DNA from: a virus
Taxonomy: Duplodnaviria; Heunggongvirae; Uroviricota; Caudoviricetes
DNA length: 16,439 nucleotides
Reading direction: 5' to 3' (one strand)
Virus record (IMG/VR): IMGVR_UViG_2657244940_000012
The position numbers were made by a program. This document shows, in pieces, positions 6,001-9,000 of the stretch (position 1 is its first letter; every line of letters begins with the position of its first letter).

Positions 6001-9000
6001 TTTTAACATCAGATTCTTTGGGGACTGGCCTGGGTTTATTTCGGGAGCGTTTGGTTGGAAGGTAATTGCAGTTTTCACAGACGATATCGGTGATGCTTCG
6101 TCGCTGTCGTCTCATTCGTACCTCCTGTCGGTAAATCTGACACCCTGATCCACGGCCCAGGATGTTGTGTACTCAATCAGGCTTGCCATACGCTTCACGC
6201 TCATTTGCGCACTGCTTTCGCGGATATTGACGTATTCACCTTCAAGACCTGGCAAAACATCAGCTTCCTGTTTTGTCGCCACGGCATGACCGCTGATTAA
6301 CAAAACTTTCCACTGTTCTGGTTTTAGCCACCTGCCGCACCACTTAACCTGGCGGGATATATCAGCGACCATCGCGTGAAATTTTGCATTTTGAGCGAGA
6401 TTACGCTTGTAATCGGTGATACGGATCGTAACGGGTTTGTCTTTATCGAGAGTTGTTGCAAGGATGGCGTTAATGGCGAATTGTTGCTGCTGCTTACTTC
6501 GGAGGAAGATAGTCTGGTTCATTATTCCCTCTCACTGGATTTTCCCAACAAAAAAGGAGCCGAAGCTCCTTTAGTTTCAGAATTCAAATTGTCTTGCCCG
6601 CAGGCTTTTCAGCATTGGCATGGCCCGCTGGATAACGGAACTTGACATGTCGAGACGTGTTACCTCCCTTAGTAGCGCGTCTCTGTTCTTCGTCACCATG
6701 TAGATAGTCTCAAACGCAATGTCATACAGCTTGTTCGTGTATGAGGAGTTCAGCTCTTTCATTATGGGGTACAGGTGTTTGCTGAGGTCCTGGGCTTTTT
6801 CCATCCATACCAGCATGTAGCAGAGGAGGATGATTTCTTCGGCTGTGAATTGTGGCTGAATCTGCGGTTGCTGTTCGGTTTGTGTTGTTTTTCCCTGGCT
6901 GAAATAGCAGTCTTCCAGTTTTTCGAACACTTCCCACGCCTGATCGGTTTCGAGCATTTTTGCATGACGGGCAGCACCGCGTTCTGTCCAGAGGATGAGG
7001 GAGCGAGTTTTAGGAGAGATTCTCACCTCATTTTGCGACTCGTTTAAAACTAGTCGCAAATTTCTGAGTTCATCACCAACAGCTTTAAAGAAGTGCTTTC
7101 CCTCAATAAACCGAGATTTATTTTCATGGTGATTCTGCTGTATACGGATTGTTTCTGTTCCATAAAGGCAGGCGAGTAACTCAGTTGTGATTACAGGAAT
7201 CTGGTTATAGGTAACAGGGGAAAGGTTTTTGACAGAGATTTGAACAGTCATAACGACCTCGCGTTTCGATAATTTTTACCTCACCACCGTCAGGTTCCAA
7301 TCATCGGGTGGCGGACTGTGCAGGGTTGGAACTACCGGTCGAAACATCCGGCGCACCTTTCGGTGCCCCCACACAGCCCACCATAAATCGCGAATGTGAC
7401 TGTGCTTAGCGCATAAAAAAACCGCCAGCGCGGTTATGCACCGTTTCGATATCCGGGGTTCCAATCCCGACGCCAGATTTTGCTGGCGTGCGATGAATAT
7501 AATCCCGGATACGCGACGTTGTCAAACTGATGGCATTGCAGATCCCTACACAATGTAATACTATGTGTTATACATTAATAACGGAACAAAAAATGCGCAT
7601 TTTTAAAAACGCTTGGTTTGAGCGATTTGCACGCAAAAACAAAATATCCGACCAGTCACTGCGCGAAATTGTTAAACAGGCTGATAACGGGCTTATCTCA
7701 GCAAACCTGGGTAACGGCGTTATCAAGCAACGTCTGCCACGAGTCGGTGGCGGCAAATCTGGCGGTTATCGCACAATCATTTTCTATCGTGTCGGTATGA
7801 GGGCATTTTTCGTATATGCATATGCAAAAAATGAACGTGAAAATATAACCGCTACTGAGGAAAGCACATTTCGGAAGGCTGCACCTCACGTACTCAATCT
7901 AACAGATGAACAACTGGCACAACTGATTCTACAGGGTCAGTTTACGGAGGTACCAAATGAGTAAAAATTACCGCAGTGATGCGCTTGCATCCGTACATGA
8001 AATGATGGAATCGCTTCATGATATCGGCGCAGTAACGAAACAGACTATGCGAGAATTCGATGAACTCTGCCTGCAACCAGCACCTTCAATGTCTCCTGAA
8101 AGAATCCGGGCACTCCGTGAGCGTGAACATCTGTCACAACCCGTCTTTGCCAGATATATGAATGTCAGTAAAAACCTGATATCTGACTGGGAACGCGGAG
8201 TGAAACGCCCTGGTGGTCCCGCCCTGCGACTTCTTTCCGTTATTGAAAAAAACGGGATTCAGGCCATAAATGTTTGATTACCACTAAATGACGATGTTTA
8301 ATCCCCCTCATCCCGGAGAAATTATTGCTGATATTCTGGAAGGTCAGAATATTGGGAGCAGAGAACTGGCAAGAGCGCTTGATGTCGCGCCTTCCACTGT
8401 TCAGCGACTGGTTTCAGGTAATGCGACAATATCTCCTGAAATGGCTGTTCGTCTCGCTGCTGTCCTGGGTGGAACTCCGTCTTCATGGATTCGTCTCCAG
8501 ACGGCATGGAGCCTTGAAAAAGCGGAAAGAGAAGTTGACGTATCTCATCTCTCAACAAAATACCGCCCGGCAGAAATTTCGCCTCATGCTTAACCACCGC
8601 GCCGTCGTTCTGGCGGCGTTTCCCTCCCCCAGAGAAATATCAATCACCGGATTGCCACATCCCATTTCGGCTCCTGCCATCTCAAATCCGGTGAATCATT
8701 TCTCGCCGGAATAACCATTACGTCCTTTTCCATCCGCTCCCTTTCTATCGCCATCACAGCCAATGCTGCAACCATGATGTATTTTTGTTCGTCGGTTCCT
8801 GTTTCATAACGACGCATGAGGGTAAACTCGGGGCGATCAGTAACCTCAATGATTTCGTTAATTTCTTTAATTTCGAGAGGAATATTGATTTTGTTGTTCA
8901 CGTCATAACCTCAATATTAAAAATTCGTTAACATTAAATTTTGAATACCGGATGTTTACCCGTGTCCGGCGCACGACCTCACGTTGCAGCGTGAAGGTCT

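Follow-up and report, generated by a model that had tools for sequence, protein, structure and literature searches.

The 16,439-nucleotide (nt) stretch of viral DNA considered here (the window; IMG/VR record IMGVR_UViG_2657244940_000012, Caudoviricetes) belongs to a lambdoid prophage and carries, antisense within its early-right operon, a block of three closely packed genes of toxin-antitoxin (TA) type, called g1, g2 and g3. With a probability of about three in four, this block is a chimera of two cassettes, in which an ordinary two-gene TA module (g1 and g2) is followed by a hitch-hiking orphan HigA (g3), and not a three-part system. Two accessory (moron) cassettes would compete for one slot of lambdoid prophages, beside a unit formed by isrK, C4 and an antirepressor gene. 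A single crossover at the heptamer GATTACC would have put g3, the antitoxin of a higBA module with a PF05015 toxin, behind g2, and a further exchange within a shared hairpin would have brought the trio into its present context in the nin region. HigA in the chimera would be made only by re-initiation 10 nt past the g2 stop and would probably be scarce, and g3 is most likely a passenger with no part in controlling g1. The features on which the argument turns are the following, in window coordinates.

7593-7964, plus strand: g1, toxin of the PF06296 'RelE' family (HigB-2 type), 123 amino acids (aa), full length (PF06296 profile)
7957-8277, plus strand: g2, HigA-2-type antitoxin, 106 aa (HTH_3, E = 2.4e-7)
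8288-8593, plus strand: g3, HigA antitoxin of the Rts1/CFT073 HigA family, 101 aa (TIGR02607)
7535-7540 and 7558-7563, plus strand: putative -35 box (TTGCAG) and putative -10 box (TACTAT), inferred
7552-7576: inverted repeat AATGTA-N13-TACATT, candidate operator over the putative -10 box
8276-8282: left junction GATTACC, a 7-nt microhomology common to the 3' end of the two-gene cassette and the higB-higA junction
8599-8619, plus strand: GC-rich hairpin with an 8-bp stem, a 5-nt loop and a UUU tail only, right junction

Identity of the three genes

It is evident that the three open reading frames (ORFs) are strong profile matches and not chance ORFs. The original prediction had placed three genes at 7526-8600, the first two overlapping by 8 nt and the third following after 10 nt, and had described them as a RelE/HigB-2-like toxin, a HigA-2-like helix-turn-helix (HTH) protein and a canonical HigA. 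All of these are found in the window, on the plus strand, and the matches given below bear out each of the three names; indeed, all three proteins are already named correctly by routine annotation.

The longest ORF at the first gene spans 7530-7964, and the true start was placed at the ATG at 7593 because the PF06296 match begins there and the same start is used by RefSeq and by homologues from other taxa. Against Pfam PF06296, g1 scores 156.6 bits (cut-off 27; E = 3.8e-46), covering model positions 1-120 of 120 from its first residue. Among solved structures, only chains of Vibrio cholerae HigB-2 are matched (E = 3e-3 with the single sequence and 6e-5 with a family profile), and PF06296 counts HigB-2 as a member (bioRxiv 10.1101/2025.01.28.635273). 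The GGYR motif of g1 (R60) aligns with GGSR of HigB-2, that is, with Arg64, the catalytic residue of VcHigB2 (PMC5416850), and g1 keeps the residue at each of the 29 columns that are invariant in an alignment of 20 family sequences, R60 included. No NCBIfam model matches g1. With PADLOC, g1 had no match, and the matches of g2 and g3 were weak and of a generic HTH kind, so that no catalogued defence system is supported.

The second gene overlaps the first by 8 nt at 7957-7964 (ATGAGTAA), with the toxin gene in the leading position; its stop codon occupies 8275-8277, and the ATG of g3 follows at 8288, leaving 10 nt between them. The g2 protein consists of an N-terminal segment of about 43 aa and a C-terminal HTH, and among solved structures it matches V. 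cholerae HigA-2 best (E = 1.3e-7, residues 44-99). The V. cholerae HigB-2/HigA-2 system (higBA2; PDB 5JAA and 5J9I; PMC5416850) shares with g1-g2 the PF06296 toxin, the toxin-first order and the arginine of the GGxR motif, and its antitoxin, like g2, combines an N-terminal extension with a C-terminal HTH. However, the two systems are only distantly related (E = 3e-3 for the toxin, of which the core only aligns, and 1e-7 for the antitoxin HTH); the Vibrio system resides in a superintegron, whereas the module in the window occupies an accessory slot of a lambdoid prophage and is known here from sequence alone.

By analogy, the best-supported reading of g1-g2 is that of a complete, working type II module of the HigB-2/HigA-2 class. 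From what is known of V. cholerae HigBA2 (PMC5416850), g1 would be a ribosome-dependent mRNA endonuclease, kept inactive by the N-terminal segment of g2, while a dimer of the g2 HTH would repress the promoter of the module at the inverted repeat over the putative -10 box. The ribosome-binding site (RBS) of g1 is weak, with a predicted anti-Shine-Dalgarno duplex of -3.5 kcal/mol, and that of g2 (GGAGG) is strong, at -10.8 kcal/mol; together with the 8-nt overlap, these would favour an excess of antitoxin. Should synthesis stop, the labile antitoxin would decay and the toxin would arrest translation, and the causes could be prophage loss, host shut-off and possibly antisense read-through from pR on induction. 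The region 7535-7576 is put forward as the putative promoter and operator of the module. Its TTGC..ATCC and ACTATGT..TTA.ACA blocks are kept in an 80%-identical cassette (TUM1881) that has a different context; a consensus promoter scan did not call a promoter at 7535-7576.

The third gene is a full-length member of a different antitoxin family. It scores 84.9 bits against the TIGR02607 antidote_HigA equivalog model (cut-off 47.7) and matches HigA of Escherichia coli CFT073 (PDB 2ICP) at E = 1e-26, and Proteus/Rts1 HigA is matched too. Its DNA is 97% identical to higA of Shiga toxin (Stx) phages, including the higBA of phage GER2, and 96.8% identical to the Stx2a-phage allele. Unlike the Rts1 and CFT073 HigBA systems (HigA structures 2ICP and 4MCX), the window has no HigB, no higBA promoter and no higA RBS, and its HigA stands behind a foreign antitoxin gene. 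The gene directly upstream of g3 is g2, an HTH antitoxin and not a PF05015 HigB, and a tblastn search with GER2 HigB over the 16.4-kb window found no HigB remnant; the earlier claim that no HigB-type toxin lies beside g3 is therefore true of the window as a whole. Nor does the window contain a counterpart to the GER2 higBA promoter region. No inverted repeat common to the higBA promoter and the window promoter was found, which is weak evidence since the HigA operator of this lineage is unknown. The RBS of g3 has been lost, the anti-Shine-Dalgarno duplex being +0.6 kcal/mol here against -5.9 kcal/mol in native contexts. 'Orphan antitoxin', one of three options originally offered for g3, is the correct description, and the gene traces to a higBA cassette.

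Distribution and recombination junctions

Species-representative genomes hold 46 loci with a relative of g1 at 41-69% identity (47-66% for full-length matches), in Chromatiaceae (purple sulfur bacteria), Halomonas, Brucella, cyanobacteria and others. A relative of g2 (61-79% identity) comes directly after g1 in 39 of the 40 loci with sufficient downstream sequence, and none of these 39 pairs has a same-strand HigA downstream; the one nearby HigA with a detectable partner (L020; L numbers denote compared loci) belongs to a separate convergent higBA pair. Because the distant loci keep the pair and lack a same-strand HigA, g1-g2 is an old, self-sufficient bicistron and g3 a recent addition. A separate observation on these distant bacteria (L014-L059) is that g2 (61-79% identity) is better conserved than g1 (47-66%); in type II modules, antitoxins usually diverge faster than toxins.

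The three genes were also counted in 5426 complete E. coli genomes, the pair with a gene-only query. The g1-g2 pair occurs in 41 genomes, 38 of which carry it without higA, and the two-gene cassettes range from 80 to 100% identity. The higA allele of the window is present in 68 genomes, 22 of them with a close higB, and all three genes occur together in 3. Directly behind a PF05015 higB, the same higA allele is found in phage GER2, in L012 and in those 22 genomes, and in GER2 and L012 higB and higA overlap by 1 nt.

The left junction was compared between the window, a two-gene cassette (L006) and cassettes with higBA or orphan higA (L002 and L001). At this point the two-gene cassette reads AATGTT TGA TTACC TTCACT ACCGCGCCGTCATTCTGGCGGCG; the higBA cassette of GER2 reads GAGGATTACCACTAATGGCG to the left of higA and CTTAACCACCGCGCCGTCATTCTGGCGGCG to the right of it; the window reads AATGTT TGATTACCACTAAATGACG to the left of higA and CTTAACCACCGCGCCGTCGTTCTGGCGGCG TTTCCC to the right. 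The left crossover, just after the g2 stop, removed higB, the higBA promoter and the GAGGA RBS of higA. At the right junction, the GC-rich hairpin (fold of -15.2 kcal/mol, z = -2.1) ends both cassette types, the two-gene type (L004 and L006) as well as the higBA and orphan higA types (L002 and L001). A terminator scan did not call the hairpin at 8599-8619; it is possibly a weak terminator, and on the minus strand it has no U-tract.

All seven chimeric copies inspected share one and the same 34-nt left junction. They are the window itself, five nin-region loci from draft genomes, and a locus of strain JNEC-KY203 (L003 and L007-L011 beside the window); in JNEC-KY203 the trio lies in the early-left operon near int. 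Past the hairpin the sequence diverges at once, with three versions among the chimeric copies. Since the left junction is identical in all copies while the right flanks vary from the hairpin onward, the comparison indicates that the chimera arose once and then moved as a unit through flanking homology. The reverse course, in which the two-gene cassette would be a deletion derivative of the trio, was considered and rejected, as the two-gene cassette has an extra TTCACT at the junction and is the older and more diverse form. In two of the loci, a plus-strand DUF4145 gene lies just past the hairpin of an identical three-gene block (L009, 4598-5272; L010, 4597-5271), an insertion that shows further mosaic exchange at the hairpin boundary.

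These results bear directly on the idea of a true three-component system, in which g3 would serve as a second regulator or antitoxin for g1 in the manner of paaR2-paaA2-parE2 or omega-epsilon-zeta. Same-strand tight packing, a 10-nt gap fit for translational coupling, the spread of the trio as a unit and the intact g1 of the trio copies examined are what such a system would lead one to expect. The third gene, however, is missing from all 39 pairs in other taxa and from 38 of the 41 E. coli genomes, the junction is a visible recombination scar, and the natural partner of HigA is a PF05015 toxin rather than one of PF06296. Further, g2 has a DNA-binding domain of its own (HTH_3), unlike PaaA2 or epsilon. 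The likeness to paaR2-paaA2-parE2 of the cryptic prophage CP-933P (PMC8630535) extends to three co-oriented genes with an extra HTH protein in an E. coli lambdoid prophage; in that system, the antitoxin has no DNA-binding domain and the third gene is a dedicated regulator, whereas in the window the antitoxin itself has an HTH, and what follows as third gene is a foreign antitoxin absent from homologous loci. The tripartite reading, one of those first proposed for the block, is thus highly improbable, as the pair stands without g3 both in distant taxa and in most of its E. coli carriers and g3 joined it by a single recombination.

Toxin decay and stranded antitoxins

Comparison of cassettes shows that, in the slot, toxins decay or are deleted while antitoxins persist. 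In the cassettes of ML35, PhiR12_3 and O104:H4 (L005, L006 and L060), g1 is frameshifted by a 1-nt deletion in a homopolymer-rich tract (A5CA4), at the equivalent of window position 7635, and in O104:H4, an outbreak strain, there is a second deletion at 7880. The toxin gene is a pseudogene in these three cassettes and the antitoxin is intact, and PGAP still names the fragments toxins; in the other two-gene cassettes inspected, L004 and L061, g1 is intact. The 90% cluster contains many truncated toxin alleles, and no truncation is seen in the HigA alleles represented by many contigs. Orphan antitoxins such as HigA and ParD would accumulate in the slot because stranding an antitoxin is viable and stranding a toxin is lethal. 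Beside these cassettes, it was observed that in ML35 and O104:H4 (L005, 4925-5973; L060, 2231-3279) a Doc-family toxin gene, itself preceded by a small ORF, and hokD come after the cassette, so that the nin region of these prophages is a cluster of several TA systems.

In PA2-type Stx2a phages, higA is already an orphan, with an orphan ParD gene (PF03693) and a lipoprotein-like ORF upstream of it; the slot of such phages (L001, 1840-2817, phage PA2; L013, 1828-2806) holds two stranded antitoxins and no toxin. The orphan HigA of the Stx2a phages phi346 and phi349 has already been noted in print, with its function unknown (PMC12502783). These phages and PA2 resemble the window in having the same higA allele without higB, in a slot beside an ORF6N antirepressor and isrK/C4. 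They differ in the company of the gene, which lies in the early-left region behind the orphan ParD and the lipoprotein-like ORF, whereas in the window it lies in the nin region behind an intact PF06296 pair.

Several observations weigh against the view of g3 as an idle passenger on an ordinary module. In every trio inspected (L003, L007, L009 and the window), g1 is intact, whereas the two-gene cassettes are divided between intact and frameshifted; this could hint that HigA and tolerance of the toxin are linked, although the cassettes are few and their common descent confounds the comparison. None of the chimeric copies seen has a broken higA ORF, as would fit selection for HigA; linkage between g2 and the hairpin would account for this equally well. 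The trio occurs in two prophage positions with several sets of neighbours, and it is not rare in draft assemblies, where 349 contigs carry the exact HigA protein and 654 the exact g1. The HigA of the window further carries D19G and I24S, which are private to the nin-region chimera lineage and absent from the early-left chimera, from higBA-linked alleles and from PA2-type orphans. Finally, the assignment of 7535-7576 as promoter and operator is pattern-based only. As for selection on HigA itself, close higA alleles differ too little for a test (1-4 synonymous and 0-4 non-synonymous changes), and purifying selection is seen only against the paired, 90%-identical allele of L012 (18-21 synonymous and 7-9 non-synonymous), a comparison that is silent on the orphan state.

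It is conceivable, then, that the orphan HigA has been kept as a useful anti-addiction or immunity factor against the HigB of competing elements such as GER2-type phages and plasmids, or, in a variant of the idea, that g3 counters host HigBA systems that trigger abortive infection. Keeping higA would have let g1-g2 displace a resident higBA without cell death. For this higA allele, the orphan state is commoner than the paired one, given a close higB in only 22 of 68 genomes; the common orphan alleles are full length and each is present on more than 1000 contigs, and g3 would be co-transcribed in a lysogen-expressed cassette. An immunity function has been raised for phi346 and phi349, and phage-encoded antitoxin mimics such as T4 Dmd and pseudo-ToxI are known (cited in PMC12502783), although such a role has yet to be verified for any classical antitoxin (PMC12502783). 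On the other side, the loss of the g3 RBS in the chimera makes its expression probably low, a close cognate higB is found in none of the 3 complete E. coli genomes that carry the trio, the alleles are 2-3% apart at the DNA level so that their intactness may reflect a recent origin, and the PADLOC matches are weak and limited to generic HTH. On balance, an immunity role appears unlikely. A sharper form, in which the stranded HigA is a retained 'exit visa' that gives the lysogen immunity against addiction or abortive infection through the HigB of rival Stx-type phages and plasmids using the slot, is more doubtful still; if true, orphan HigA and ParD beside the isrK-C4-antirepressor unit would constitute a phage-borne anti-TA arsenal.

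The slot and the surrounding prophage

The element has lambda immunity, with lambda-type cI, cro and oL together with a 933W-like N gene. In minus-strand order, cro is followed by cII, the ORF at the O position, a DnaC-like gene, DUF1627, DUF977 and two unknown genes, then by the plus-strand block, and beyond it by NinB, YbcO, RusA and Q. The block is thus antisense inside the pR (early-right) operon, in the nin region, and the minus-strand genes from cro to Q on both sides confirm the placement first proposed for it. Directly to its left, and divergent from it, lies the separate minus-strand isrK-C4-antirepressor unit. The features of this context are as follows.

7496-7525, minus strand: divergent sigma-70 promoter TTGACA-18-TATATT (promoter scan, 11/12 matches), which drives the isrK-C4-antirepressor unit
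7489-7415, minus strand: isrK small RNA (sRNA) (Rfam RF01394, 76.3 bits, above gathering)
7388-7304, minus strand: C4 antisense RNA, P1-type (Rfam RF01695, 75.5 bits, above gathering)
7251-6577, minus strand: antirepressor, ORF6N/P22_AR_C (Pfam ORF6N and P22_AR_C; phrog_377, anti-repressor Ant)
11718-12800, minus strand: unnamed 360-aa ORF at the replication-initiator (O) position, with no Pfam match
13054-13350, minus strand: cII
13489-13689, minus strand: cro, lambda-type
13790-14503, plus strand: cI, lambda-type
Start near 16073, extending past the right end of the window: N gene, 933W-like

The isrK/C4 region (7253-7512) is 76-81% identical to that of higBA-carrying phages, and the homology ends just beyond the -35 box of the isrK promoter, so that this divergent promoter marks the left edge of the exchangeable slot. 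As the isrK/C4 flank and the hairpin are common to different cassette types, the slot is best described as one with conserved flanks and exchangeable cargo, its right limit being the GC hairpin. Every cassette type in the slot runs opposite to the surrounding early operon, at the nin and the early-left positions alike. A tRNA-like remnant had also been considered upstream of the block; a tRNA scan found none, and Rfam identified the region as isrK and C4. Taken by itself, the set of promoter, isrK, C4 and antirepressor is an immI-like antirepressor control unit placed inside the nin region, and in many Stx-type phages the isrK/C4 RNA region adjoins TA cassettes, again at both the nin and the early-left positions.

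The antisense placement could also be taken as a lytic switch, in which N-antiterminated pR transcription would silence the module on induction, and the freed toxin would stop host translation or abort a superinfecting phage. The block is convergent with pR, a 933W-like N gene is present, the hairpin, which has no U-tract on the minus strand, should let pR transcripts pass, and all cassette types of the slot are oriented against the early operon around them, whether at the nin or at the early-left position. However, morons are generically laid out in this way, opposed to their surroundings and with a promoter and hairpin of their own, and no special switch need be invoked; a translation-blocking toxin acting in the lytic cycle would harm phage production too, and frameshifts in the toxin gene of many lineages have had no evident effect on the prophage. 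We regard such a switch as improbable. The same block is also antisense in the early-left operon of other prophages, and its placement is the one usually seen for an accessory cassette with independent expression.

Two further observations concern parts of the prophage away from the block. A plus-strand ORF of 332 aa with a central hydrophobic segment (14574-15572) lies between cI and oL/pL, at the position of rexAB. Its match is phrog_6191, a family of unknown function, with none in Pfam or PADLOC, and it is a candidate lysogen-expressed exclusion gene. The other is a tandem pair of sRNAs of the STnc100 family (3342-3533 and 2857-3066, minus strand; 145 and 138 bits), which has Q and a DnaD_N-like gene on its upstream side and a NanS-p-like sialate esterase gene (652-2655) on its downstream side. 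In Stx phages, this position is occupied by tRNAs and stx.

Overall, read as a chimera, the block is a worked example of how mosaic recombination of alternative TA cassettes in one slot can yield apparent three-gene systems, and a caution that gene adjacency alone does not make a tripartite system. It also offers a defined substrate for two questions, namely whether orphan antitoxins of prophages act against foreign toxins, and whether the PF06296/HTH pair of E. coli is an active module. What residual interest there is attaches to the first of these, the idea that prophage-borne orphan antitoxins may act on foreign toxins.

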